Assembly (NCBI GenBank): GCA_030264375.1
Contig: JASCQW010000043.1
Coordinates: 70,274,960-70,338,959 of the forward strand
Reading direction: 5' to 3'
DNA length: 64,000 nt
Origin: Carcharhinus longimanus
Lineage: Eukaryota
This document shows, in pieces, positions 10,320-64,000 of this stretch. Under the pieces are notes generated by a model that was not told where the DNA came from, made no database searches, and saw nothing but the letters and a program-made list of their open reading frames with translations. Both the position numbers and the translations under genes were made by a program. Each line of letters starts with the position of its first letter. The first letter of the stretch is position 1.

Positions 10320-11755
10320 ACAAACATCCAGCTATGAATGATGGTGGTCAATTAAACTCAGCAGAAGGGGAGGCCCTACAAATACTCCCATCGTCAATGA
10401 TGGAGAGCTCAGCATAAGTGCAAAATACCAGACTGAACCACTTGCCACCATCTTCAATCCCTGGCTGAGTGTAGGTGTTCTTTCTCATCATCCACTGGAG
10501 GGACCTGTCATCATAGAAAACCATCTTCAGCCAATTTGATTCACTTGATAAGAAAATTGCCAAAGATATTGGATACAGCAAGGCCATGGGTCCAGACAAT
10601 AACCTAGTACAGTACTGAAATCTTGTGCCCCAAAATAGCCAAACCCCAAAATAAGCTGTTCCATTACAGATAAAACACTGGTATCTACCCAGCATGGTGG
10701 AAAATTACCCAGGTTTGTCCTATACGCAAAAAGGACAAAATTTAATTTGGCCAATTATCAGCCCATCTGTCTACTTGTGATTGTCAGCGAAGTAACAGAA
10801 GATGCCGTCAACAGTGCTATGAGGTAGCACTTACTCAGCAATAATCAGTTTGCTGATGCTCAGTTTGGGTTCTGCCTGTTTCACAGCCCTAGTCCAAACA
10901 TGGACAAAAGAGCTGAACACGACTGGTGAGATGAAAGATTGCCCTTAACAGCATTTGACCAAATGTGCAGGCCTAGAAAAACAAATGGGGGTTGGGAAAA
11001 AAACTCTCCATTGGTTGTCTCATTTCTAGTACAAAGGAAGATGGTTATGGTTGTTGGAAGCCAATTATCTCAGCTCCAGGACATTGTTGCAGGGTAGTGT
11101 CCAAGAAAAGCCCAACAACTTTAGCTGCTTTCCTTCCATCATAAGGTCTAACTAGAGATGTTTGCTGATGAGTGCAAAATATCAGATACTAAAGCATGCA
11201 GCAAGACCTGGACAATGTTCAGGTTTGAGCTGATAAGATACATTTGCATCACACCACGTACAAGGCACGAGTCAGGAATAAGATAGAATACTCTTCATTT
11301 CTCTGGATGAGTGAAACTTCAACAACATTCAAACTTGATATCATCCAGGATAAAACTGCCAGCTTGATTGGCACCCCATTCACCATCTTAAACATTCACT
11401 CCCACCACCACCACCACCACCAATGCACAGTTGACAGCTGTATACTTTACATGATGCCTGCTGCAACCCACCAATGCTCCTTTAGGAACACCTTGCAAAC
11501 CTGCAACCTCCACAGCTTAAAATGCCAAGGCAGCAGATACATGGGGGCATCACCAACTGCAAGTTCTCCTCCAAGCCACAAACCATCCTGACTTAAGTCA
11601 CCCTCCTTCTCAGTTGCTGGGTAAAAATTCTGGAACTCCCAAACAGCACTACACCACATGGACCAGTGATATTCTGCCACCTTCTCAACGGTAATTAGGG
11701 ATGGGCAACAATGCTGGCCTTGTCAGCTACACTCAAACTCAATACAAGAAAAAAA
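10320..11755 (+). mobile_element. CR1-clade LINE (second family), decayed RT and 3' end
   Basis: Degenerate KAMGPDN..VLKSCAP, 'GIYP..WKI.QVCPI.KK', 'ANYQPICLL', QFGF and MFADE motifs, ending in the gggatgggcaac..tgctggccttg tail and an A-rich end. Confidence 0.8.
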
Positions 11756-11906
11756 ACACAGCCACCTAGAAATTATGAGAAGTGAGCATGAAAGTGGAAT
11801 TTGACTAGATCACTCACATAGGTTTATGCTGAATAGAACACTACAGAAATTAACTCTGCTCAAGTGGTACCAGATTTAGAATAGTGTAGCTTTGTCTGAG
11901 ATTGCA

Positions 11907-12028
11907 GGCAGGATTTTACAGCCTTGCTCAACCCGAGTCTGGAAAAACCCCACTGAAGTCAACGGACCTTCCCACTGTCTGCCCTTTGCCCGCTCCAATT
12001 CTCGTGGCAGGCAGGGTGGCAGAATTCT
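11907..12028. mobile_element. Short MITE-like element (probable Harbinger-type non-autonomous)
   Basis: GC-richer island bounded by ggcaggattttac and ggcagaattctg, imperfect inverted ends resembling those at 32955-33160. Confidence 0.4.
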
Positions 12029-14394
12029 GATGCATTTCTCGATATAGAATATACGTACGTCATATTTGAGCAGTTCAGAAAGGTGAGAAAAATTACTTTG
12101 TAAATTCCCTTCATAATTAAAACTTGTCAAGCTAAGTGACTTTCCAGAAGTTCAAATGTGCAGCTCAGACTAACCCTAAAATTACAGCTTTGTAACCTGC
12201 CACTTTCAGTTGACTTCAATTTGGTCTAATGGTAATGCTTTAATTACTTGCTTCAGGATTTGTATCTGCTAACAGCATCAGCACTATTGTACATTCTTTT
12301 TAAAAATATATGACGTAATGTTTACAAAGGATACAACATGAACTACAGGATAAACACACATGCACACCAAGCATCACCTCAAAACTAAACCAAGCACACA
12401 AAGGTACCAACCCTTGATGGGCTATGCTTCTACAAGCTCTGCAGAGTCCAATGTTGTTGAACTTCCACCTGCCCACAACTTGCTGTCAGGCAGTGCCAAC
12501 ACACACACATTTCACAGCTATCACAACATCATCTCCAAACAGTGAGAAAGCAAATGGTGAATGAATATCTGAAGCATGACAATTGCACCAGCACAGTCAT
12601 TAAGCTCTCCAGACGTAAACCCATGGACATCAAGTGCTTTGTTAAGTGTAGTCACCTAAATGTGTGTCAGGTCCATGCAGCTCAAGCTTCATGGGTCATT
12701 TGAAATTTAATTAAATACACTTAAGCAAATTTACCCATAATCAAAGATGGCAAATCAAATTTCAAGCTCAAAGGAGATTTGGTCACAAAAAAAAATCAAG
12801 TGGTTGTTTGTGTGAATTCAGGAAAAGTGCAGTCCTTAACAGATTTTATGTAGTGTACTAGACTGAGCAGTTTCCTATCAATATTTGCCATGATAGGAAG
12901 CCAATAAGAAATCACCGAAGCAGCATTTAGAAAGTTCAGGTCATCGTGTGCAATAATTCCCATTTAATTTCATGAGGTACAAAAGGAATGGTGTAAATAT
13001 GATTCCTGTACAACTTCACTACAATAATGAGCACTTCAGGTAGATGTCTGAATGTAATGATATACAAAGAAAAAAAACAACTGTTTGGTGTAATTTTTGC
13101 AGTTAAAATACTTGTCAATTTTGACTACTAATCTATTAACAAAGCAAGGAGTAACCATCATACACACTCTCTCTCCTGCAGAGAAAATATACAAATAATT
13201 CTTCTTTCATGAGCTTTCACAGGAGGTTAATGAGACTGTGCTGCCACCACTGGACCATGTTAAAAGATCCATTATACTGAACTTTATTTTATTTTGGACT
13301 GCAGATTGACAGTATGGTCACAAACAATGGAATTTTCCCATCAATAGCAGGTAGAGATTTTTGAAAAAATCAGAGGAAGATAATGTCCAAGAAAACTTTC
13401 GCATGACCATGTGTGTTGTTCTAGGGTTGAGGAATCTAATCCACAATATAAATGGCATCAGCAGTCTTGGGTATTACTATTTTTCTTGAAGTATTTATGG
13501 AACATCAAATGACCACTGGATTATTCAAATGTTTTTTTTCCATGACAAAATGGCTCTCAAATTTTGTTCACAATTGTATGTCTGTAAGAGCCCTCAAGAC
13601 TACAAAATGCCTCTGATTTGCCTTAATTTATGTAATTAAATTTCATTAACCAGGTCTGTAAAGCTAACGATGAACTAATTGAACTTACAATTCAGTACAA
13701 ATATGAAAAATTTACCATCTTATTTTTGCCAGCAAGGTAAACCTTCAGGAACAGCAACATTATTTGCAGACTCAACTAAAATGCAGAAGTCATTCCAGTT
13801 AGTGGAATTACTTTGTTGATACAGCACCTTCATAACTGATGGTTAAGGAAATAGTCTGTAAACAGGAATTGAATCCGCAATTGACCCTCGTGCAACTCCA
13901 AACAATGTATTCACTTGTAAAATTTGAACAGATTTGTAAAGTTTGCATGACTGATCATGAATTTATACATTTCAAAGTATAAATTCAATGTAATAGATAT
14001 GGGAAACACCCAAAGTTTTACCCAAAGCATGGCCAAGTGAATTTTTCTTCCCAATAACCTTTTACCATTGAAAGGAGTGATGGTACATATTGGTTAACAT
14101 TTGATGCACTGCCGCAATCTAGTATAATTAAGAAAGGAAAGGAATATAAACCAAAAGGAGGGGATAGCAAATATTCATCCAATTTGTGTCACTTAAGATT
14201 CAGAGTAAACAGAGTAAATTTAAAAGAATGTGAAGAGACAGCATTAGTTATTTGATGGCAAAGAAAATTTGACAGATGTTGTAATGAAATAATTCATGTT
14301 TTACTTGCTCCCATTTGATAAATATTTTGCCTTACTACCTGGACATTTAAAAAAAAATAAAGATAGTGGAAGTGGGATATTCAGAAGTACTTAC

Positions 14395-14411
14395 TGTGCC
14401 TGGATCCCTCT
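14395..14411 (-). CDS. TLE1: 17-nt microexon, TLE1 exon 8 equivalent
   Basis: aaacag|AGAGGGATCCAGGCACA|gtaagt. With the phase-1 G from exon 7 it gives ERDPGT (mammalian TLE1 has DREPGT) and restores phase 0. Confidence 0.92.
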
Positions 14412-14462
14412 CTGTTTCCACAGTAACCACAAAATGCATAGATATGGTGGTTCAGATACAAA

Positions 14463-14534
14463 GGCAAAAAAAGAAACAAAGAAAAAAGAAAATTAGAACG
14501 CAAGCCGACAGATGCTTTCACAACAGCTTTTATT
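14463..14534 (-). terminator. Candidate intronic cleavage/polyadenylation site
   Basis: Minus-strand AATAAA at 14529-14534, a CA dinucleotide 15-16 nt downstream, then a GU-rich stretch and a ~30-nt U-rich tract. UGUA motifs lie upstream. Confidence 0.5.
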
Positions 14535-16546
14535 CATTCAATTCATTGCACATTTCTAATACATTTTCTTTTAAAAGTTCCACTTGTATTTTAACATTAT
14601 AGGTACATCAGTTCTTTGCATACAACCCCTGGCCTTGGAACCAATGACAGAATAAATTACTGTTGGGTTATTAAATTAAAATGGCAACAAGAGTTATTCA
14701 GCAAGTGCAATTCGTATTCATTAAATTAAAGGGATTCACAGCACATTGATCTTAATACAAAGTTTTTTTTATATAAAGAGAAAACTGTTCAATTTAACAG
14801 AGCAGAATGATTTAACATGACTACAGTTGCAAACCTAGCAACATCAAGTTTGTTATTTCCCTCCCCCCCCCTCCCTGTACACACTTAAATAAAACAGTAT
14901 GGATGGTTTTCTAGTGATCGCATTGTCCTTCAAACCCTTTCTGGTTATAAGTAATAGTAAAAAAATGCTGTGGGCAATAAAACGATGAAGGAAGTGTGGT
15001 AGGAATACAAGCAACTCCCACTTGCTTCTTGCTAGTGCAACAATCGACTGTACATGATTAGTTGAAGCCAGAAATATTGCAGCGTGATCCACTTAAATTC
15101 AGGCCAAATCATTTAGGCTCAAAACAGTTTTGCCTTTACAAAAATGTCTACAGTCTATATATCCCGCCCATCTCAATATCATTATGTGAAAAGGTCTTAC
15201 AATTATTGGATTGTATTTAAACTTAAACTAAGGGCGGGGGTAGGGGAAAGAGAAGAGAAAATGAGGAATGGGAATAAAGAAAGATAGAACCAAAGCTTGT
15301 TTTGTTTTCCATTTGTTTTATAGTTTAGATTAGTGGAAGTAACTAACATTATTTTTGGTCCAATGCACACAATGTGCTCTCTCACAATCTTTCCAGAATG
15401 TATTCAGTATACAATACATAAATGACATTTCAAACTATATAAAAAAAAACACCATTTACATCACTCCATTCATCACCAAGAGGATAAAAAACTTCATAAT
15501 ACAAAATTTAAAAGCCTAATCCAAAAATTCTCAATGCTATTAAGGACACAACGATTTCAGATAGCTGTAGTTTTTGATTTCTTTGTGGGGCAGAGGAACA
15601 GAAGAGAAACAATGGGAAGAAGAACATTAGCTTTCAGGTAGCTAGCTGTATTGAATATTCATTACAAAAAAGGACCAAACATGTTGCAAGGAAGGTTATA
15701 TGGTAAAACAGTGACAACATTGTTAGATACAAGTGTCTCTTTGCAATAACAATTTTAACTATTTAAGCTAATCTGCAAGTGACCTATTTAGCTTGTTTTC
15801 CTGACTACTATGGATCTAATCAGAATAGGAAAAATGTCTCAGTTCGCACATGACAGGTTTGTTCAAGAAAACTAATTTTTAAAAAATAATTTCCATATAT
15901 CTGGCATTGTACAGAACACAGAAAACACATTTGTAGCTGCTTGTCATTACATGCATTAAAATCATAGAATCCTTCTTGTGAATCAAGTAAACTTGATGGG
16001 ATCATATTGATGGGAATATTTTTGTACTAACTTTCGACTATTAAGACTGTTATCAATTAATGACTAAACTGTCTGTTAACAGACACAAACAAAAATTGAT
16101 TATTATTGACAATGCCATTGTGCGTTTCTTGAGATAGATACTTCATCTAGATTTTTTTAAAATCCCATTGATTAGATAACTGACGCCACTGTTTGTGAAA
16201 GCTGTCTTTCAAAAAAGACAAAATCATATTGCACTTCAAATTGCAAAGTTCACTTTTTGAAACAGTTTATTGGCTCTGGAAAGTTTGCATAGATATATGG
16301 TGAAAAAGATGCACTGCAATTTATTGTACTCAGGAGCATACATTTGTGCATCAGGTTGAGTAAGTTGTAGACATAAAGACACGACATATCAAGAGGAGCA
16401 AGGCAGTCTGGTAGAAGGCTTTTTTGAGAAAAGGAGCCAAAAGGCATGCAACTTATCCTGTATTCATTCTGATGAATAGTTATTCTTGAAGAGGTTTAGA
16501 ATGTCACCATCATTCTGTACCTCTACATTTCCAATATTTTTTTGGG

Positions 16547-16566
16547 GTGTGTGTGTGTGTGTGTGT
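16547..16566 (+). repeat. (GT)n microsatellite
   Basis: About 10 GT units followed by a G-rich tract. Confidence 0.9.
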
Positions 16567-17665
16567 TGGGGTGGGGGGGCGGTGGTGCAGATAAGGGAGA
16601 GAATGGTCCCAAGCTAGTATCCTTGGCTTGCTGTTTGACTTTGGTACATTAGTTGCTTTCTTTGTATTAGGTTAAATTGTTTTGCTGCTGTTAGCAAGTA
16701 TTGTGTTTGTCTACATGTTAAAATAATTGCATATCTTCCATGCAACAGGCCCAGCTGTGAGTTGCATCTGAAAGATAAGATTATTCTTGGCCCCTGCCAT
16801 TTCTGGGGCCATGGAGCTTGGGGCAATAGGGAGTGCAAAAGTGGGAAACTGATGCTTGCAATGAACAACTCCAATCAAAAACCACAAGCATGTCACTTAA
16901 GGCGAATGTTCAAAATGTTACCTGACAAGACATGTGGATTAAGACACTTGAAATTACTTCAATTTTTGTAAAGATTATCAGACAAAGGTGTCTCTGTCTC
17001 ACCCGTTTTGAATTTGTAAATTTAACAGTTAAGATAATGAGCCGGGCAAGGGAAAAGAAGAAAAAAAATAGTAGATGTCAATGCCAACAAGTATGCATCA
17101 GTGCATTTGATTCCTTGCCCCAATCATCCAAGCCAATACAATTAAAAATGAAGCTGGTGCAATAATCAGAATAATAAATCCGTTGAACAATGGATTGGCA
17201 ATTGTTGCAAAAAGTGAGNNNAAGTGAGTGACAAATTAAAAGCTAATTTAAGGTTTACCTATTCCAAGAGGAATTATTAATCAGACAAAAGGAGAACAAT
17301 GAATAATACGTTATCAGAGTAAGCAACATTGTATTATTCCCATCTAAATCATGCACCATTAATCACAGCTGCACTAATTCTCAAATGCTGTGAATGGAAG
17401 GCTTCCCCCTCCTCTTTCCAAGTGAATCAATTTTAATAAAACAGCCATGTTGTAATGATGTGGTAAAGAGGATTGATCTCTTTCTGATATTACCACTATA
17501 GCAGCTTATTTATTTGTAGACTTGGGCCTTTGTTCAATGTTGATCACTTGCCACACATTGAAAAATACTCTGGAACAACCAGCAAAGAAACTTCAGATCA
17601 ATCTACAGATAAACATTACAATTGCCACAAATGCTGTGGAATGTAACACTCTTGCTCCACATGTG

Positions 17666-17756
17666 TGAGGTTATGGGAATAGGGCCTGGGTGGGATTGTG
17701 GTCGGCGCAGATTTGATGGGCCAAATGGCCTCCTTCTGCACTGTAGGGGTTCTATG
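17666..17756 (+). mobile_element. HE1 SINE 3' tail fragment
   Basis: gggaatagggcctgggtgggattgtggtcgg...aaatggcctccttctgcactgtag matches the tail at 2200-2283. Confidence 0.75.
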
Positions 17757-18157
17757 AGATAATTATAACATTTGCTGCATTAATGCAGGATGGCACAAAT
17801 GACATCGAGAAACAAGTTTGGAATGGGACCCAAATCATCATAATCGTCCCTCCAGCTTCCCCTTAAGGGAGGAGTTGTCCAATGCTCCTACTTCAAAATG
17901 AGTTGTGCTGCAATACTGCTCATTATAATGTAGACAACCAACAAAATGGTAGCATTTGTATTATGGGTAATAATACAGCACAGGAAACCATTTTTGTAAA
18001 ATTCAGAAGATGACATTCAATTTAAATCTTTGATTAAATGAAAAACTGATTGTTTCGGCAATTGGTTAATTATGGGGGTTTTTTTTGCATCTTGTATTGA
18101 CTTTGAAACCTATAGAAAGAACCTAGCTGTGAGCAGACTGAAATTCACGATAAGTTT

Positions 18158-18183
18158 CTAATCAGGCCTGCCTTGCTTCTCAC
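18158..18183 (-). CDS. TLE1: Putative short-isoform C-terminus from intron-7 read-through (GEKQGRPD*)
   Basis: ORF 18158..18340 continues past the exon-7 donor to a TAG at 18158-18160. The peptide resembles the recalled mammalian TLE1 short-isoform (Grg1-S-type) tail GERPGKPD. Confidence 0.6.
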
Positions 18184-18388
18184 CTCTGTGGTGGTCCGAT
18201 TCATGGTGCTTCTTATCATCTTTCATAGAAAGGTGGGGCTGTCCACCCAAAACACTGGATAACGTCAAAAGACCTGCACTGTTACCAAGCGAGGGGATTG
18301 ATGGAGGCTGAAGTCCTGAAGGGTGAGGAGTGAGAGGCACTGGAGGTCCATGGCCATGAGACAGATGTTGAGCCTGAAGTTGCTGTTG
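18184..18388 (-). CDS. TLE1: TLE exon 7 equivalent (GP domain)
   Basis: ggacag|CAACAGCAA...CACCACAGAG|gtgaga, 205 nt, translating to [68 protein letters not shown] plus 1 nt. [18 protein letters not shown] and KDDKKHH are TLE1-like rather than TLE3- or TLE4-like. Confidence 0.96.
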
Positions 18389-21300
18389 CTGTCCATATTA
18401 AAGGTCACCATAATTTACCAGCAAAATAAGAAACAGGGAGAGAAGACAACAAAATATAGTTATTTCAGCAAGAAGTTCTCTGTGCAAAGTTCAGCAACAA
18501 ATATAAAGTAAACTTTTCACTTAAGAAGAATTAACACAGCAGTTACAAAATACTATTGCTCAATTTCCTCACCTATAACGGATTAACATTCACATGTTAA
18601 CAGTGACAGATTTGCGGTCTTGACTGGATGCAATCACACGCTGCCAGTAATGAAGTCACAAAGTTTGATACAAAGTTTGCTTTCGGCTTTTTAGTCTACT
18701 TTGAAATATTATAAGTTTTATTTGAGCAGTTGCGAAGTCCGACATTTAATATTCAGACTTGAATTTTGACTCTTATCCATTCCAAAAGCTCCACTTGGAC
18801 TACAGCTGCATTAGGGTTATTCTAGAGCAAGAAAATACGAACTGAGGCTTCAATCTTTGTGCAGATGGAGATGCTCGCTGCAAAAATGTCGGCAGCGGTC
18901 TGATCAGAGGCCGTGCTCCCACATTCAACGTCCGAATTTTCACAGGGGGAATTGGGGCAGTCTCTGAACACATTCCTGGTTCATGTATGCAGCAGCCCAT
19001 AATAATCAGCAGCTGCTCCCACCCATGTGATTAGGTATCCAAAACTGGAAATATGCAGAATACACACCAAGCAAGAGCAGGTCTTTATCCTTGTGAATTT
19101 GCTTGCATACCAGGTACCCTTTTGATGAGGTATGGTAGCACTTTGGATACAAATCAAGAACACTTAGATTTAAGACATCCTTTGGGATTGTTAAAAGTAA
19201 TAATGATGTATTAAAATGCATAAATTCATTGGAACTGTCCAAGCTATCAACAAACTCTCAAAGCTCATTGAAATTTGTCAAAGCTGTCAAGGGAGTCTGC
19301 GAGGCTTTATTTGTATATTTTCTTAAAAAGATGTGGAGTTCTAAAAAAAAAAATCAGTGCTTGATATTTCACTGTCTGTTAATATATGCTGGAAGGTTAT
19401 TATATGATTTGTGCTACATGACTAATTTAACAACCTAGCATTATCACAGTATGGTGCCTTTTAAGTAAGCAGTTTGATTTAGACAACCCCAAGTGATTAT
19501 AGAATAAAAATATTTGTTTTCGTAAGAGATTAGTCAAAGCAATTTCAATGTGCTTTTTTTAAATGAGGTTTTAAAATAGCGACATCAATAGGCACATTAT
19601 TTTATGTCAGCATGATTCCTGAGTTTTGCCTATGGTGAATATTAAATGAATTGGCATGGAGGGAGAAAGACAAAGGGTAGCATACTTAGAGGCATGGTGT
19701 GGCACAAAGTTGGCATAGGAGATACAAGGAGTACGGGGATTTTCAGGTCATGAGGTGGAATGGAGAATGTGCGAGGGCTGGTTTTATTTGGTTCATTTTT
19801 TAATGCATTTAAAGTGCTTGACACGAGGCAGCTTTCTGCCAAGCCTGCATCCGCAGCCAGCAGCTACCAAATTTGTTCTGACTTCTAGTCAAGACCGTCT
19901 CTCCGGAATGAAAATTCAAACTATCGGACTTCTTTTTTCCCCAGTGTTGGGTTGGTCCACGCTCGACATGTTTGGTCTCTGTGCTCCCGAATGGAGGGGG
20001 ACAATCTGGGCCCTAATGTTAATGATTTTATTTAAATTGCACAAATGAATTAAAAAGTTCCTACACAGATTTTTATGTTGGTTTGATTTCAACTTAGTTT
20101 CTGGGAGACCAGGATCTAAATAATCATCTTTATGCCAAATCTGGCTCCCTCATTAATAATCTTCATAACATTAAATCCAGCTTACTGGTGTTGATCTGCA
20201 AAAAAAAAAAGGTGGAGCCAATTTAAAAAGTAATTTGAGGGTGCAAATAAATTTGAGTTTAATACCATCTACTGCATTGCAGGGACTTGAACCCATGTCC
20301 ACAGAGCATTAGACTGGACTTCTGAATTACTAGCCCAGTGACAAGGAGGCTCTTTTAAAAGGAACCATTGGATGCAAGGACACTAACAGATATAGTTTGA
20401 ATGATTTTGTACCCCCATCTAGCTAGTTTTTGTTTGCTATTTTCAATAGTTTAGAATAATTATCACAGGTGGTTGATTTATACTGATTGCTTTTTGTGAC
20501 AACCCATTTGAGCGGTAACTGGATTTTTACCGAGTTACTATATTTTTAAAAATGACATTTTAATGCCCAGTTTTGCTGGTTTATGGTNNNNNNNNNNCAA
20601 AAGAGATGCAATTTGTACCAAAGTCATTGTTCATACCCACTGCAGAAACACTATCCCGTTACTTATAGAACACAAAACAACAGGTTGCAACATGCAATAA
20701 AATGTACAGTTTTTTCACAAAAAATATAGCTATACAAAACATAACATAGCACACAATAGTAACAGCCCATTAAACTAAAGGCATCAATGTAGACAAAATC
20801 TGCTTCCAATTTTTTTCCTCCACAGAAGTCTGTGAATCTTACTGCAATATACATGGCTTTTAAAACAAAGTTGAATGAGATCACAATATCTAAATATGAT
20901 TTCTTTAAAACTCCATACCAGAACACTGACACAGTACATTTTCTGAAGCACATTAATATAATTCATTTTGCACCCATTTTGATTGGGAATTTGAGTGATA
21001 GGCAACAAGCTTGTGCAGGGAGTGGTGGGGGGAGGGGGGGGTGTGGCAGGAGGGCAGAGATGCCAAGCTCTGTCTTGATGTCTGCATTATGGTCCACCAG
21101 GCATGCTTATTAGCACTTAATTAAAAATTGGACACTTGCCATTAGAAGCATGTTCATTGCAACCCAAGTATCAACTTTGTCCTATTACCAGTTACAACTA
21201 CTACTGCACTACTTAAGTGGTGTGTCCAATTTCTTTGGAAGAAGCGGTGATGCATGTACAGGCAGCTGACTGACAGCAATTAACAACAGGCTTTATAAAA

Positions 21301-21909
21301 ATAGCTAAAATGTGGACATATAACCCTTCAGCAGTAGAACTCAAGAAGAACAAAACTTTACATTGCAAACACCAAGTGCATTAGGCTAATTTGTCTCCCC
21401 AATTGAATTGGGGATAATAGGATTAATTCTGTCCAACCAGCATTTAGGTTACTGGAGGTGCAGAATTAAATAATGGTTCACAGTACTCAGATTTCAAATA
21501 TTCAAGACAGCTGGCAAGTTTCTATTTGAACTACCAGGCAAACAGTACAAAATAAGACCACTTGAACTTAGTACCACAGTCTGCTGAAAGCAACTGTTTG
21601 GAGGCTATTCAAATGCTTTTCATGTTTATACTGTGGAAACACTTTTGGAAAGGAAGTGGTGTTGCAGTACCCAGTCTGATCACAGGCAAAAACGGCAATT
21701 TATGCTGCTCACACAAGACACTGGGTTTGTCAGATGCCAAAAGATGCAAATCTTGATCAACTGATGGTTTGACAAAAAAAAACTTAGTGGTTGGAAGGAA
21801 CAGTTTTTAAAAAAATTAATATACCCAGGTATCAAAATATTACATACACTGCAGATTTCTGCATTAAGTGACTTTAAAATACATATTTGCCCACTTGATA
21901 CAACAAAGG

Positions 21910-22177
21910 TATGGTAGCCCAGTGACTGTGGCTCTGGACTAGCTACTCAGAGCATTTAACTTCAAATTTTGCTTTGGGAAATATACTGAATTTAGTTTTA
22001 TATCTGATAAATTATTGGTTAGTTCCAGAAAAAGACCCTCAAGCTGCTAATTGTAAAAACCCAAGTGATTCCTGAAGAAATTTGAAAAATTTGCAAAGTT
22101 GACCTGGTCCGGACTCAATGCCTTCAAGGCAACCATGAAGGAATGGGTCACACCCATGTCCTAAGAACTAAAAAAAA
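21910..22177 (+). mobile_element. Degenerate tRNA-derived SINE (same family as 57480-57830)
   Basis: ggtagcccagtgac...ctggactag head, ttgtaaaaaccc...acctggtc.gg core and A-rich tail, loosely collinear with the reverse complement of 57480-57830. A head-only copy sits at ~20255-20345 (-). Confidence 0.5.
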
Positions 22178-25100
22178 CCTAGTAAATGCACAACCCTATA
22201 CACAAAACACAATAACCAACACTTTCCTTGCTCATTTCGGGGAGGGGTAAAATGTAAAGAAAGAGAGCCTAAAATGTTATCTCAAAAAAGGTCAGGATTG
22301 CAGGAATCGGATAAGCAAAAATAAGCTAATTGAACTTGGCCATCAGGTCTAATCAAAGTCTTCCTTTTTCTTACAAATTACTAGACGATTGCAGTTGCAT
22401 CACTGACCAAGCATACAGATTAGAAAGGTAGGTAAAGGAAAATGAGAAATGAAGCAACCAGGCACTAGCAGAATCATTAGAATGCACAACTCAGAAGTCT
22501 GGGTACAATTTTTTTTGAAACAAATAGGAAATACAACTGTCCCTGCTAATCATTATACAGAAGAGAGACAAATTAATTTTGCATTATTTTGCATTATTGC
22601 ATGAGCCAGGAACCATAAAATTAAAAGAAGTTCCCAAAAGCATTTTGAGTGACTGATGTCAAAAACATGTGCTCAGTTGGTTTTAACTTACAAGATTCCA
22701 AATTTTGCAAAATTCACTGCTTTCACAATCAGCTTTTAAAAATAGACTTTTCATGGAAGTCAAATGAGCAATAACAAATCCTTCATTTAACTAGCATTCC
22801 ATCCATTCTAAAGTTAGGAATGGGAATAATTATGTTCAACCTTATTTAAAAAATTACAATGGGAAACATGAAGGGAGTAGAACATTCTAACAAGATTTCA
22901 GTGCTTGTGAATTTGTTTAATGTAATTAAGAGCAATTCACCACTGGACATCATCTATCCTCTTAAACACACTGCAAGTAGTCTTGGTGCCTTAAGTGTTC
23001 ATACGTTTTTTCTTCAAGCATTCAGCCTGCACTGAACAACCCAAATAAACAAAATAAACCAGATTTACAATCAAACTTCAGTTCCTCTTTCTCTTTTCCC
23101 TAGCTTCATTCCTTCCACACCCCCATCCCCTTAAACACCACTCACTAGCAAACCATTATGCATTGTCGATCGGGTACTTACAAAGCCAAATGTCTTTTTA
23201 AAAATATAAATGCAATTCTTGCCACAACTGCTTAGTATTGTCCTCATCACACACCCTCAGTCTGGTTATTTATGGTTCAGAAGATTGATTACTCTGCAGA
23301 ATAAACCTACAACAGGTTAACTCTGTTCTTGAATCTCATCACAATACAGATAGCAAGGTGCTATTACAACTGAGGAAAATAGGGCCAGCAAGCATGTGGG
23401 GGTGGGTGGCAGAAGGCTAGGGAAAGTACACCAACATCTATTAATCCTTCATCAAATCCAATCATGATATCTTCTTTCATGAAGAACAGGATGCCTAATT
23501 TTACCTAACAATGCTAGTTAAATTCTATTAACGTTTTTAGGGATTTGTCTGTACATTAATTGTAAAAATTGCTAATCAAGCTGCTTATCATTAGCAACAG
23601 TCACAAAATGAATGTTTAGTCTGCTAGGAGAGAGAAATGGAACCAGTCTAAAAGGAAGTGCAGTTTAGGAACTTGGATTCTCTACTAATCTAAGGAACTT
23701 TGGTCCTTCTGAAAAAAAAGCTTTGCCAGGACTTTTGCTTAACCTATTCTTAGTATGATTATCGGTGTTTTTTAGTGCATGACCCCCATTGTCCTTTACA
23801 CTAGGTCATGTCCCTTCGCAATGCAGGCAGCTGCCATAAAATGGATCAGCATTTATTTGCAGTGCAGCTGCTGTTAATACAAATAGATAGACTTCTGTTG
23901 TCTGTTTCCCCTTGGGAGACAGGTTGACACATTGCATGTTCAATGATGGAGCAAAGGTCCTGAGATTTGTCAGCCCAATTTTATGCTGTTCTGGTTCGTC
24001 AGGATACACCAGTTCCTTTTCAAGTAAAATGATGCATGTGTCAAAGCATGAATCTAATTATACTACACGGGATAATTATGAAAATGCTATCTGATTTTTG
24101 ACAGAGATATAGAACAAAGAACAGAGTGGAACAGGATTCATAAAGTTTCCGTGTTACTCAGCAGGCAATATTGGATTTTTTTTAAGGTCTTGATAATTGA
24201 GTTCAGAAGGATATTTTACTGTTTTCTGAATTAAAACCAGTTCTTCTCAAAACACACTGTTCAGAAATGGCAGAATGGATGTTTTGAGGTGTTTGTTCTT
24301 CAAAATTAGGCACAGAACTGAAAAGAATGAATTACGACTACATTTACAGCTGAGCATAAGCACAAGACTAAAAAATGATGCCAATTTATCAATCTATTGA
24401 AGTTGGTGCTAATTATTAATTTTGACTTGGGGTGGGGAAGTAAACAGATTTATGGAATGTTGTTCTTTAATATCAGTTGTTTATATCTCATCACATCAGG
24501 AAAGAAACATTATGGGAGATTTTCCCAGTTCTGTGCCTTGCACAGTGACAGTAAAATCAGGCATTGTCAGACATCCATTAATGCATAAGCAGCAACTTTC
24601 TGCAGTTAAATATTAGGAAGATAAAAGCCAACATCATCTGGCTCCTAGCAGAAACTTCATATGCTGGATATCACCTACTTCCACTCCCTGATTACCATTT
24701 CAGGCTTAATCACACTGTTTGCAACTGTGAATTCCTGTTAAAGAGTTCAGTATCTAACTTCATGACATCTCCATCACAAAGAGTGCCTACCTCCACCTCT
24801 ACTCTTCAGCTCACGCAAAAGTCGACTGTCCGTATCTTTAAAGGCACAGCATTGCTTATGAATCAGGAGTATGCAAACATAACTTATTACAAGAGTCTGT
24901 GCTTTCATGGAGGGCATAAAATCAATTTGGAACAAGCATGGGATGACACGAACATAAAAAAGACTTGTAGTTCTAATAAAACGAGACTGAAGTAGGTTAA
25001 AGGGAGGTGATGGGGATAAAGGGAAAAGAGCACAGGTGAGGAAGGAGGGTTAGAACGTAAGAGGAATGTGTGGGAAGATTTACGTTTAATGTCAGGCTCA

Positions 25101-26024
25101 ATAGTCATACATGTAAAACAGCACAAAAACTGTACTCTATAAATAATCACATGGATGCTGTTTTGGGACAAAATCATGAGAGAAAATGAAGGTCACCCTA
25201 CTAGTTTATTTCACTTAATTGCCTGCCAATAGTTTACCAGAAGCAAACTGACTGTAGATCTACAACTGAGAAACTGATGAAAGAAAACTTTTCAAGCTGT
25301 GTCCAATTCTTTTATCAGCACTAATCCACAGCTTTTATTTTTCAATCTCCAGTCGGAATGTAATTTTGAGCCCAGATGGATTAACTGGTCTCTTTGTCTA
25401 AAGATGTCATTGGTCTTTGCCAGTTAATCCTTACAACGGCATGCCTAATTATCATTACAAAGTGTCTCAGAGAACTATAAAAATCAGCAGGGCATCTTCA
25501 CACGAGCAATTAACATAAATTGATAAATGAGTAATTTGAATTTGCTAAATCCTTTCATGCGTGAAGAAAATTAAAAGAGGACAACCTCTGACAGTGGATT
25601 GTTCCAGCAAGACAGAAAACATCAAGATTTTCAACACTCATTTCTGATTGCTAATATATTGAGGGAAGGAAGAGAATGCAGAAGCATCAGTATTTGCATG
25701 GCTCATTTGACAAAAATTATGAGACTGACAGTCTGGACATGATACTTCAGTCGTAAGTATATAGAAGAGACGTAAGAAAATGACTTGGTCAAAGGCATAC
25801 TGACTGGTTAAATTTGAATGCCCATTAGAAAATACAATTGCTAAAGTTTATTGACAGATTTCCATTTAGACAGCATTCAGGACAAAATCATCTTATGTAC
25901 AAAATCCTAATACTTCACGTAATGAAGATGTAACTGTTCTTGCATACATAAAGCATATTACCCTAAAGCACCAACACACACAAATATACAATTGAAAGTA
26001 AGTGAATAAGATGGGTATACACAC

Positions 26025-26054
26025 TGTAAGAGGCAGACTGGGAAGCCCACGTAC
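26025..26054 (-). CDS. TLE1: 30-nt in-frame extension of exon 6 through an alternative 5' donor ([10 protein letters not shown])
   Basis: Read-through of the first donor gives GTACGTGGGCTTCCCAGTCTGCCTCTTACA, then a second donor gtgtgt. This resembles the VRGLP-type 10-aa insert of mammalian TLE long isoforms (recalled). Confidence 0.8.
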
Positions 26055-26129
26055 CCCGATGATGCTGTTCAACTCTGCCATGGTCACTTGCTTTGCGCGT
26101 TCCACAGCCTGTGCCACCTGTTGTTGGTG
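26055..26129 (-). CDS. TLE1: TLE exon 6 equivalent (end of Q domain), short form
   Basis: gag|CACCAACAA...ATCATCGGG|gtacgt, 75 nt, translating to [25 protein letters not shown]. It lies inside ORF 25893..26138. Confidence 0.95.
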
Positions 26130-27092
26130 CTCATTCACAGAAAGAAGATGCTTGTGTTAAATTGCTAATCTTTAACTAAATCTTAGTGCATTTAAAAACT
26201 GAAATATACATTAAGTTTACTTCATTTATCATTATATTAATGCTGTACTAAAATGAAAAATATGTCAAACTAGAAAAAAATTGAAAGTTATGCAGTGCCG
26301 CACATTAACGCCGATGTGCTGTGCCATAGATGCGCCAAGAGTAATCTCAGCAAAATGCTCATTCTGTCTGTGTGAGCCTCAACAATAAGTGTAAGCAGAG
26401 GCCTCAACTAAATCAGGTTGTATCATTATTTAACGACCATACATACCCAGCAGAGGTCACTGGATGGCGATCAGCAACAGGAACGCCAGCTTGTCCCTTT
26501 TTCATCACTCCTCCACTGAACAACTCATCACTAAGACTTTTTAAGGCCTATTGTAGCATTTGAGCAATATCCCAATTGAGATTGATTAATTCAGCACAGA
26601 CCAGGAATCAAAGTGGGAATGGTCTGTATAGTCATTCCACAGCAGGAAAGTGCATTCACATGTAATCGGGGATAAGGGTCATAGTGAAAAGAGGAGGGAA
26701 AGTCAACCAATTTTGGATATGATGTTCAAGGGATACAAATTAGTTCTTAACAGTTCTTTTTGGGCCATGGATGAGAATGAGAAATGAAGAACTACCATTT
26801 TTCATGAAAAATGATTGTAAATTTAAAAGGTGAAGTGTCATGTTTGCACAGTTCCGAGGAAAAACAATTAAACAAAGGCAAGTGCACAAAGCAAAAATCT
26901 GATGCTAGATACCTCAGTTTTACACTGCACATTAGGGCGTGAACTGCAATATTCAGCATATAACTTGCGTTTGAAAACATGCCTGCCCAAAACAGTAACA
27001 GGTATTCACAATAATCATCACTAATGTCAACTAACTTAAACACAGAACATAAATGGAAGTTAACAACTAAACAGTCCGATGAGTTGACTTAC

Positions 27093-27155
27093 TTCCTGAG
27101 ACAGAAAGGGAATCACTTGTGCACAAATTGTATTCAGCCGTTTCGCTATTTCTGT
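27093..27155 (-). CDS. TLE1: TLE exon 5 equivalent (Q domain)
   Basis: cag|ACAGAAATAGCG...TCTCAGGAA|gtaagt, 63 nt, phase 0/0, translating to TEIAKRLNTICAQVIPFLSQE. The 36,739-nt intron upstream joins it in frame to the exon at 63895-63939. Confidence 0.96.
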
Positions 27156-30114
27156 CTGGATAAGAAGATGACAATTGATTAATGACAAATTTCAGCATTC
27201 AGTTGTCAAACATCCAGTGAATAGTGAGATACGTTACAACACAGTGAATTATGTAACATATGTTTTTCAGTGATATTCCTCAGACAAACTCAAATCTTTC
27301 TGACCAATGCCAACACAGTGAAGCCAAACTGAACAGATCTCTTTTTGCATTCTAAACCAGAAAACAAAGTCATATAGCGCACTTTGAAAGTGTACAACTG
27401 CGCAATCACCATATGATGCCACCTTCAGTATTTTCTAGAGATGCTGTTGTATTTTGTGCCTCAGATGTGCAGAGATGTCACCAATCACTATTCTGAACAG
27501 GAATTTTATATACAGTGCTTTTAAAATTGCTTGTTCTCTTATGCTTACAGCTTCGTTTCTGGTTGCCAGCAATCATACTGAGGCTTGACAAACACAAGAA
27601 CAGTCAACAGGCACATACAATTGAACACAATAGCTGTGTTTGCTGTTTAGTTCATCATTCTTGATATTGAATATTATCACCTAGAAGTAGACACCACTCC
27701 ACCCATCATGGTGTGATTTCATCTGCAAAATTGATTTTACATGGAGTTTCTGAATCAATATTACAGAAGATGTAATCGGACCAGGATGCTATACAGTTTG
27801 ATCATTACTACCCGATTAAAATTCTACTGCTTTCGCAATGTAGGTCAAATTCTATTGCCTTTGTTGACTGGGGATGATTAGCGTCAAGTCTAACAAGGCC
27901 CAAAGGTTTCTTTCAATTTCTGCCTTAGCAATTCAACACCATTCATGCAGTGTGCATGATGCCCTTATATAGCACTTCGTCATTTCTGCTTACATACATA
28001 TATTGTTCCAATTCATTCTGTAATTTGAGCTGAATCCTTATAATTCCACTATTCCCCCAACACCACCCTACCCACCACAGCGTGATCACATCTGAAAAAT
28101 TGATTACTTCACATGAGTTTCTGAATCTATGTTACAGACGTAAATCTGAAACAACAGCAGTAACAACAGTCAACCTTTGAGCACTCCACTCAAAAACAAC
28201 GCAGGATGTTACACCCACATGTGGGAAACCAAAATCCAGCAGGGCCGTGCGAAATCAGTGCCGAGTTCAAACAAACCCCATTTTTGCTGCAGGAAGAGCT
28301 TAATCCTAAAGTGCATGAGTCATGAATTTTAAGAAGAAGTGTAATGCTCTTGAAGGGTAGACAGAACTGTCAAGCCTTCAAGTTATTTAAATTGCTTGCT
28401 TGTCTTTTAAACTTTGAACAATGAGCTGCCTGCTTATGTCAGAGAGTTGGACAAATATCTTCTAGCAGTTTCGATAGTGATTTGCTGACATAACCCTAAT
28501 ACTGTTATTTAGTGCTATTAATTCTTGATTGACAGCTCAAGGAGGCACTTAAAGGATTAGTTGTCTTTGATGTTGGGTTATGAATACAAATGTTTGATTT
28601 ATAAGGAAGTGCCTGAAGGGATTCACATGTATTGAATGGGCTTTCATGAATGGGACTTTTTTTAATATTGTGTAACCTGTAATAGATATGTAGTACTTTA
28701 TTTAAATTCAGCGTAACTCCCAAAGTCTGCCCATGATGAATAGGTTAGGCATGGAGGGCTTAAAGACAAAAAGGGTGGTGAATAGAGAGCATGAACTGAC
28801 ACCAAGTTACATTGGGCTATAAGAGCCATGGGTTGGCTCGAGTTGATATGTATGGGCATGTGGAATGTGTGGAAGGGTGGGTATAGAGGGCTTGGTACGT
28901 GTCTTGGCACAAAGTCCCAAGAGAACCAAGGTCAGCCTTTTGAAACTACTCACCTCAGCACTCAGCTGCTCATGTGTCCACCCCCAATCTGGATCTGCTG
29001 TATGTGGGCCTGATTAAACCTGCACCTGCCACCACCCCACAATGAAAATCCTACCATTTAGGACACATTTTCCCCTTGAGAGTTGTGGCAAGCCAGGAGG
29101 TCTCCTGGCTCTACACACCCATCTAGGGACCTAAAATCCAGGCCAGCAACTCTAATTGTGCAGCATTCACACCAAACTGCAGGAGTTCCAGCTAAAATTA
29201 TTTGCTCAAGTCTCTGGAGCTGAGCTCACAAACTAAACCCTACTAACTCAGTCACTCCAGTTTTTAATCAAAACACAACACAAACACAACTGTACAGACT
29301 TTGCATTTGAAAATTACCTTGCCAGAAAAACCACAAGTGTTGGGAACCAAATAAAACCTGAAAATACATAGAAACAATGGGTTAATGCTTTGGATAAAAT
29401 CCTTCATCAGAACGCAGTTCCATCAAAGGGTTATACCCGAAACATTAATCAATTATTCTTTTCTCTTCATGTCTATGGACTAGTTTAATGTGCATAACGT
29501 GCATTCAATTGGTTAAACAATAATCATAGCCCTACTCATGACTCAAATAAAGGCTGAGTGTAGTTTTATTTAGTATCCCAATACTATTTGACTTTGGGCC
29601 ATAATATTCAGTAACCCACATCAGTTACTGAAACAATAGTGTTACTGTAACAAGTGTTCTTTTTTAATTGATTAGCTTCACATCAGTAGTCCAAATAAAA
29701 TACTAATCCCTGATCTGATACAAGTAGGTGATATGGCTAAAGCTTGATTATTGATCAGTACCCAGCTGAATGACCTTTCTTGTTAAAGTGGTTGAGATCA
29801 CGCTTTTGGCCTCACTGCGAGTGAAAGAAAAATGGTAGCGCTCTTACTCGTGATCAATATCCAATGATGTCTGAACCATATCCACACCAGACATCAGGAG
29901 GTCAAATCACATTCAACTCAGATGCCATCCTACTACTCACCATCTCAGCTTTCATAGAATTACAGGCTTTATGAACTAAGTGTTAGCACAAATAGAACTA
30001 ATTTCCAAGAGGAATTGTTCTGTTTGCGAGAAGGTACAAAATGGACAGGAAAAGAAAATATCTTAATGCATGTACTTAAATGAACCAAACAATTTCATTA
30101 AGAACATGCTTTTG

Positions 30115-63894: not shown

Positions 63895-63939
63895 CTGTTT
63901 GTGCATCTCAATATTCAATCCATATGACATTTCATAATA
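63895..63939 (-). CDS. TLE1: TLE/Groucho co-repressor, coding exon equivalent to mammalian exon 4 (Q domain)
   Basis: The minus strand reads ctcttttacag|TATTATGAAATG...ATGCACAAACAG|gtaaga. The 45 nt translate to YYEMSYGLNIEMHKQ, the conserved Groucho Q-domain peptide. Confidence 0.96.
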
Positions 63940-64000
63940 CTGTAAAAGAGAATATTAAACTTATAAACCAAACAATTACAATATGCTGACAAAACAAATC

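Follow-up and report, generated by a model that had tools for sequence, protein, structure and literature searches.

The stretch of DNA analysed here (64,000 nucleotides of Carcharhinus longimanus, contig JASCQW010000043.1, positions 70,274,960 to 70,338,959; hereafter the window) holds the 5' half of the Groucho-family gene TLE1 on its minus strand, exons 2-3 and 9-11 lying outside the window on the same contig (numbers count coding exons; exons 2-7 were located and exon 1 is presumed). The identity of the gene as the TLE1 orthologue follows from catshark TLE1 being among the best protein matches of exon 7 (95% identity over the exon, in the best 120 of 1467 matches), while TLE4 is found 1.1 Mb away on the opposite strand and the other paralogues elsewhere. 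Intron 7 (18183-14412, 3772 nucleotides) separates exon 7, which encodes the GP domain, from an exon 8 of 17 nucleotides. A preliminary description of the sequence had proposed that, when the exon-7 donor at 18183 is left unused, the frame continues for eight codons and stops, yielding a short TLE1 limited to the Q and GP domains, with intron 7 serving as a long 3' untranslated region (UTR). Translation of the read-through gave GEKQGRPD followed by TAG at 18160-18158, just as described, so that the shark gene presents the eight new residues and the stop after the GP exon that characterize short TLE1.

Proteins ending in this region were gathered by a search with exon 7 plus the tail (best 120 of 1467 matches), by cluster look-ups and by a profile search (best 150 of 210), which gave 101 TLE1-type rows with G or D past the exon end; 40 of these splice on or continue into later exons and were removed. 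Among the matches listed, the 61 remaining read-throughs all end after exactly eight residues, many of these rows being near-duplicates, the window contributing a single one and the query favouring rows that bear a tail. The stop position, which the preliminary description had singled out for comparison among species, is thus identical in all of them. Only eight distinct tails occur: GERPGKPD (40 rows), GERHGRPD (9), DERPGKPD (4), GERHGKPD (3), GERHGKPT (2), and the tail of the window, GERPGKID and GERHGKQM (one each). The control rows, which are lower-scoring matches of the same searches, showed 20 distinct tails of 2-141 amino acids in 25 rows of TLE4 and 31 distinct tails of 3-109 amino acids in 31 rows of TLE3. 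GERPGKPD is the mammalian type, GERHGRPD that of birds and GERPGKID that of the arowana Scleropages, and the named carriers include cow, bats, beaver, ground squirrel, orangutans, several birds, a rattlesnake, a coral snake and a skink. A mammalian short isoform ending about GERPGKPD, which the preliminary description had mentioned, is indeed on record: the cow RefSeq protein NP_001091489.1 is a spliced product of Q domain, GP domain and tail with precisely this end, which other named records of 199-200 amino acids have too. Likewise, the rattlesnake entry "Groucho protein GRG1-S", as well as many assembly-derived records, comprises the full spliced Q, GP and tail sequence, in the rattlesnake ending GERHGKPD. 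Two chimaera gene models agree with the tail through GERQ only and then diverge. When the 127,078 seven-codon stretches of the window were scored against the cow, bird or rattlesnake tail, a single one reached the score of the shark tail, namely the tail itself (nine did so against the arowana tail), so that the tail is far beyond what chance would give. As a separate observation, four unnamed proteins (P0039, P0154, P0156 and P0337) carry a variant of TLE1 exon 7 with the end DERPGKPD, and in P0039, if not in others, intron-like sequence lies upstream; their change from G to D means that the donor GT is gone, as it is in AES (see below), perhaps in a duplicated copy.

Comparison at the DNA level was made with L041, a TLE1 locus of sauropsid type with a bird-type tail, comprising exon 7, the intron and exon 8, which came from a metagenome scan that gave two loci from 592 candidate stretches. 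Tail and stop are identical in 25 of 27 nucleotides, the alignment terminates at TAG, and only 10 of the next 30 nucleotides agree. Likeness resumes only at the end of the intron, in a block (14563-14387; 75% over 180 nucleotides, E = 3e-27) that holds a poly(A) signal and the exon-8 acceptor. The intron measures 3772 nucleotides in the shark and 731 in L041. The spacing within the block is nearly the same, the distance to the acceptor being 123 nucleotides in the window and 125 in L041 from AATAAA, and 85 and 88, respectively, from a CTAAT motif that precedes a pyrimidine tract in a zone of about 100 nucleotides free of AG. The other splice flanks are at background (22 of 60 on the acceptor side of exon 7 and 25 of 60 on the donor side of exon 8), and a DNA search of the shark genome with the block returned only the block of the window itself. 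Comparison by eye with the human product of 3' rapid amplification of cDNA ends (3'RACE) in the accessible part of PMC12456218 showed that this product ends 17 nucleotides past the AATAAA of the same block, matching the window from 14563 in 33 of 38 letters up to three past the hexamer and in 40 of 52 up to the poly(A). The AATAAA at 14534-14529 is hence at the orthologous intronic site, and cleavage in the shark is predicted near 14513-14511. Some 110 nucleotides above the signal, a run of 16 nucleotides (14659-14644) is identical in the window and L041 and recurs, bar its last letter, in the human product (by eye; PMC12456218, accessible part); it is possibly an upstream poly(A) element.

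The tail, its stop, the poly(A) signal and the spacing of this signal to the acceptor are therefore conserved. In the pair compared, the sharp edge of conservation at the stop codon favours coding constraint. The bias toward synonymous change that the preliminary description had expected was not found: in this single DNA pair the tail shows no synonymous and two non-synonymous changes, and we do not count this test as support. The lack of silent changes weakly suggests that a further constraint may act at the RNA level. Immediately past the stop, 18157-18137 reads KLIVNFS in register with NLVVDVS of exon 10 (11 of 15 nucleotides, a likeness with a null share of 5.5e-4 for a length picked after looking; 12 of 21, 0.01), which we treat as chance since neither L041 (7 of 15) nor AES (6 of 15) shows it.

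Of 22 listed sequencing runs, 20 hold the stretch; none is recorded as RNA, their RNA nature being a guess. Four runs from four studies, with four organism labels, selected for holding intron 7, were compared over 10401-25400. In each of them the intron is covered by long contigs, which break mainly at a fragment resembling a short interspersed element (SINE); one contig of run X2 extends unbroken over 14527-17701. The lowest contig ends (14549, 14527, 14549 and 14536) fall at the conserved hexamer within 22 nucleotides of each other, no listed long contig extending to the exon-8 acceptor and a skipped repeat (14465-14492) lying between. In three of the four runs a contig from the intron reaches 30 letters into exon 7, one letter under the threshold taken for a bridge, and run X11 holds a contig that is exactly exon 7. 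Where an assembly graph branches, an overlap of 30 letters is to be expected, and the exon-7 contig is the pattern expected where spliced and read-through paths part. The two differences in the contig of run X1 are outside the tail, which means that the organism of that run has the same tail. Outside repeats, the contigs of these runs cover introns 6 and 8 scarcely or not at all, gaps that we do not count as evidence. The proposal that intron 7 doubles as a long 3' UTR thus gains support from probable RNA contigs that span it to the conserved poly(A) signal in four of four runs.

Two further arguments of the preliminary description, from the composition of the intron, held only as observations. 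There are indeed four minus-strand AATAAA hexamers in intron 7 (17514, 16325, 16271 and 14534), but 2.7 are expected and six occur on the opposite strand, so that their number is rejected as support; only the one at 14534 is conserved. Similarly, the intron contains one SINE-like piece and is poor in transposons when compared with intron 8 (3.0% repeat cover vs 27.6% in the examined part), but introns 5 (0.8%) and 6 (0.1%) are equally poor, and of 15 other non-overlapping tiles three are near zero and a fourth has 2.6%, which removes this feature as evidence for a UTR. These figures are lower bounds, the repeat library consisting of 284 kb of the same genome plus self-matches of the window. 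The intron is short in the four long paralogues too (about 1.6-4.1 kb).

Taking these results together, the shark feature is a real and conserved element, orthologous to the short TLE1 isoform known as Grg1-S or, for intronic polyadenylation, TLE1-IPA. We put at roughly 0.87 the probability that intron 7 opens with 27 bases coding for a conserved tail and stop and that the rest is likely the 3' UTR of a TLE1 form with Q and GP domains only, likely polyadenylated at the conserved AATAAA above microexon 8. The agreement of tail and poly(A) signal among shark, land vertebrates and the mapped human site makes it likely that a truncated protein arises from the shark gene, one expected to modulate full-length TLE1. 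Several points weigh on the other side. The last residues of the tail vary (GKPT, GKQM, GKID), and no named shark short-isoform record appears among the rows listed. Silent changes are absent from the seven tail codons with unchanged residues, compared with 23 of 57 in exon 7, both tail differences being non-synonymous (p = 0.04 with the donor and stop codons included, p = 0.29 for codons 3-8). The runs lack an RNA record, consist of contigs only, were chosen for the intron and have no DNA run alongside; their contigs show no poly(A) tail, those that read through carry just the 30 exon letters mentioned above, and the skipped simple repeat, 35-57 nucleotides below the contig ends, might itself break contigs. 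The stretch compared left out exon 6, so that joining of exons 1-7 to the tail is seen only in amniote records. Lastly, the published functions come from overexpression, Grg1-S repressing a TCF reporter (PMC3698143) and TLE1-IPA dampening activation (PMC12456218), so that in the accessible parts of these sources the role of the short form differs between the two assays, a damper in one and a narrower repressor in the other.

Chance alone, by which the reading frame would run to a stop as it does in any intron, has almost nothing left to recommend it: the first stop falls at codon 9 in 3.9% of random stretches, and the paralogues of the same genome all have short read-throughs of 5-10 codons into unrelated peptides, but the match to the amniote tails is reached by no stretch of the window other than the tail, and this score, the DNA alignment with L041 and the match to the human 3'RACE product refute it. 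It is very improbable, too, that the short transcript functions in bony vertebrates only, with the shark tail maintained by splice-site constraint and the intronic RNA being unprocessed precursor. This would fit the lack of runs recorded as RNA and of any poly(A) seen, but the shark preserves codons 3-8 as well as the stop and the distant AATAAA, and contigs from four studies end within 22 nucleotides at the poly(A) signal. The strongest competitor, although still unlikely, is a detained or poison intron, in which unspliced intron 7 restrains full-length TLE1, its first 27 nucleotides are conserved for their part in splicing and the peptide arises incidentally. Consistent with such an intron, the tail changed at no synonymous site and is closer to L041 than exon 7 is (25 of 27 vs 160 of 204 nucleotides, one pair), the conserved 3' block doubles as branch point and pyrimidine tract, and the contigs end near the skipped repeat. 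What speaks against it is that conservation halts at the stop codon, that the tail has eight codons in every TLE1 row listed, that the AATAAA is conserved and in human is used to make an mRNA as stable as the full-length one (PMC12456218, accessible part), and that the paralogues retain the microexon and the AG-poor zone with neither such a tail nor such a signal.

If intron 7 is the 3' UTR of a short TLE1, cleavage and splicing to the 17-nucleotide microexon would compete at a single place, for the GU/U-rich stretch just below the cut would be the same sequence that holds the likely branch point and the pyrimidine tract of this hard-to-splice exon. CstF binds the former kind of sequence, and U2 snRNP and U2AF the latter. 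Sharing of one sequence by these factors suggests that cleavage and splicing would exclude each other, cleavage near 14512 cutting exon 7 off from the exon-8 acceptor and splicing removing the poly(A) signal. The cleaved product would consist of exons 1-7 with the intron as last exon, and having no splice junction below the stop it should escape junction-based decay, whereas splicing would lead to the protein of 770 amino acids. The short protein (about 200-210 amino acids) would retain the Q domain, through which it would form oligomers and bind TCF, but would be without the nuclear signal, SP and WD40 regions; it may join the Q-domain oligomers of the long TLEs and so alter the amount of repression.

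The closest known system is human TLE1-IPA (TLE1-201, ENST00000376463), a protein of 200 amino acids with eight new residues after residue 192. In the accessible part of PMC12456218 it is a minor product of intronic polyadenylation that direct RNA sequencing and 3'RACE both confirmed, and its mRNA is about as long-lived as the full-length one. The tagged protein entered the nucleus, was apparently dimeric and, when overexpressed, dampened TLE1-dependent targets and lowered the oestrogen induction of TFF1 and GREB1. Relapse-free survival in oestrogen-receptor-positive breast cancer follows the ratio of this isoform to full-length TLE1. The predicted shark form and the human form share the gene, the addition of eight residues after the GP exon, the restriction to Q and GP domains and the poly(A) signal in the same block; they differ in the tail (GERPGKPD in human) and in the UTR, which in the shark would be several times longer (compare the intron lengths of the shark and L041). 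That paper numbers the intron as the sixth, and conservation is not taken up in its accessible part. The mouse form, Grg1-S (Lepourcelet and Shivdasani 2002), like the predicted shark form a short Q and GP product of the TLE1 gene, is cited as a splice product that binds TCF4 and represses a TCF reporter (PMC3698143, accessible part). The literature search turned up no function for a shark form. The function of the short Groucho splice forms has been called unclear (PMC2997355, accessible part), and the accessible part of PMC9692235 leaves them unmentioned.

A short end of the same kind is found in AES (TLE5), which is also limited to the Q and GP domains. The shark AES gene (loci L002 and L007, G000:C150:2.67-2.76 Mb; 97% to chimaera TLE5) ends HQR-DEGVQKPD-TAG, with the length and position of the TLE1 tail but without the donor GT, its DNA reading AG-ATGAG where TLE1 reads AG-GTGAG. 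The AES-type rows that end in this region (in the best 120 of 961) nearly all stop in K-[PS]-D, eight residues past the anchor, with exceptions in a few gene models, and in bony vertebrates the end is rich in D and E and finishes in KSD. The shark TLE1 and AES ends share E2, P7, D8 and TAG, and K/R6, D8 and the stop occur in all AES groups seen; the likeness of the shark pair exceeds that of all but 23 of 127,078 random stretches in a post hoc comparison. The genes are nevertheless distinct. AES is a separate gene with no match to exons 9-11 downstream, whereas at the window locus exons 8-11 follow, as distinct from the absence of CcN, SP and WD40 exons that marks AES; AES also groups away from TLE1 and is without the TLE1 poly(A) block. 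In a tree of the Q and GP region (25 rows, the L006-type gene left out and the rows labelled L004like being ray proteins), the AES clade was supported at 100/99, AES grouped with TLE4 and the L004-type gene, and the window sequence fell outside the AES clade. AES as a duplicate of TLE1 is rejected, a single clade of AES and TLE1 having a p value of 0.003 in the AU test. We also sought the poly(A) block in the 18 kb below the AES stop and in the corresponding introns of the four paralogues, obtaining scores of 25-33 compared with shuffle maxima of 29-38 and 63 for the positive control (in the TLE3 intron, 32 vs a shuffle maximum of 29).

How the two ends came to be alike admits several answers. 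It is conceivable, if doubtful, that the eight-residue end in K/R-[PS]-D is a functional signature common to both short Grouchos and that AES is a frozen intron-7 read-through (donor GT changed to AT) of an isoform older than the split of the TLE paralogues, which only TLE1 would still make by alternative processing; this would require four independent losses. Bony-vertebrate AES ends are identical to the start of exon 10 of the long TLEs in 4-7 of 8 positions and to the TLE1 tails in 1-3, and a fusion of exon 7 to exon 10 explains them better than common descent. Direct splicing between these exons is rejected as the source, being out of frame (phase 1 into phase 0), so that an AES end derived from exon 10 would need a genomic fusion. 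The published origin of AES, in the accessible part of PMC2997355, is a tandem duplication from TLE2. Convergence of TLE1 and AES on the same end is the fallback.

The features of the locus and of its relatives are collected in Table 1. Each of the four long paralogues retains the exon-8 microexon, preceded by an AG-poor zone of about 45-115 nucleotides (candidates by best peptide match), and in none of them is there an AATAAA or ATTAAA within 200 nucleotides above the acceptor; the awkward acceptor is thus a trait of the family and the poly(A) signal an addition of TLE1.

Table 1. Coordinates of the TLE1 features in the window and of related features elsewhere
Feature	Position	Strand	Basis
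TLE1 exon 4, Q domain (approximate bounds)	63895..63945	-	protein mapping
TLE1 exon 5, Q domain (approximate bounds)	27078..27179	-	protein mapping
TLE1 exon 6, end of Q domain (approximate bounds)	26025..26132	-	protein mapping
TLE1 exon 7, GP domain, 205 nucleotides	18184..18388	-	read-through translation, protein mapping; contig of one run (X11) with exactly these bounds
Exon-7 donor GTGAGA (phase 1), left unused by the short form	18178..18183	-	identical donor letters in L041
Eight-codon tail GEKQGRPD and TAG (18160-18158)	18158..18184	-	25/27 nucleotides as in L041; alignment stops at TAG
Likely 3' UTR of the short isoform, ~3.65 kb	14512..18157	-	long contigs in 4/4 runs (RNA nature guessed); lower end placed from the human site
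SINE-like repeat fragment, the only repeat found in intron 7	about 17661..17770	.	repeat search
Conserved block containing the poly(A) signal, a branch-point-like motif with U-rich tract, and exon 8 flanked by its acceptor and donor	14387..14563	-	75% over 180 nucleotides to L041
Conserved AATAAA, cleavage predicted near 14513-14511	14529..14534	-	orthologous to human 3'RACE hexamer (by eye)
Branch-point-like TTCTAAT, then pyrimidine tract in AG-free zone of ~100 nucleotides	14492..14498	-	putative branch point, from consensus
Exon 8, 17-nucleotide microexon of the full-length form (ERDPGT)	14395..14411	-	splice frame, L041 alignment
AES/TLE5 last exon, ending DEGVQKPD and stop; AT where TLE1 has the donor GT	L007:8384-8614 (G000:C150:2673384-2673614)	-	
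Paralogue exon-8 microexons (17, 17, 23 and 17 nucleotides)	G000:C43:69206096, C163:12868603, C150:2278241, C150:2070813		best peptide match

Other observations concern the gene and its relatives. Exon 6 includes (at about 26054-26025) an extension of 10 codons that is present in some TLE1 records and absent from others, for which reason the short form may have 200 or 210 amino acids. In intron 6 a non-coding stretch of 62 nucleotides (21147-21086) is 82% identical to L041 (E = 6e-11) and, judged by this conservation, is likely a regulatory element. Exon 7 of shark TLE4 (L005, G000:C43:69201791-69201976, plus strand) is without eight residues of the GP domain that the other paralogues have. 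Contig C150 carries three Groucho genes (G000:C150:1.93-2.76 Mb), the plus-strand L006 with TLE1-like and the long minus-strand L004 with TLE4-like residues, the former in its Q domain, which suggests that this cluster and that at C43:69.1-70.3 Mb are inverted copies of one ancestral pair. A lone match resembling exon 6 (L038, G000:C162:42237785-42237913, minus strand) is similar to the L004-type gene, whose own exon 6 is unlisted on C150, and could represent a displaced exon or a gene fragment, or else a misassembly.

What is new in these results is the depth of the isoform in vertebrate history, the conserved poly(A) signal laid over the branch region of a microexon and the unexplained likeness to the AES end. 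Our literature search found no paper on the conservation of short TLE1, which Bajoghli 2007 and the original Grg1-S paper may discuss. Cartilaginous and bony vertebrates separated roughly 420-450 million years ago. Since a shark retains the tail, its stop and the poly(A) signal, and a teleost retains the tail, the short form is an old and selected feature of TLE1 and not processing noise. The AATAAA over the branch region of exon 8 would in turn be a switch, one that could be edited so as to remove the short form while leaving the long protein untouched.

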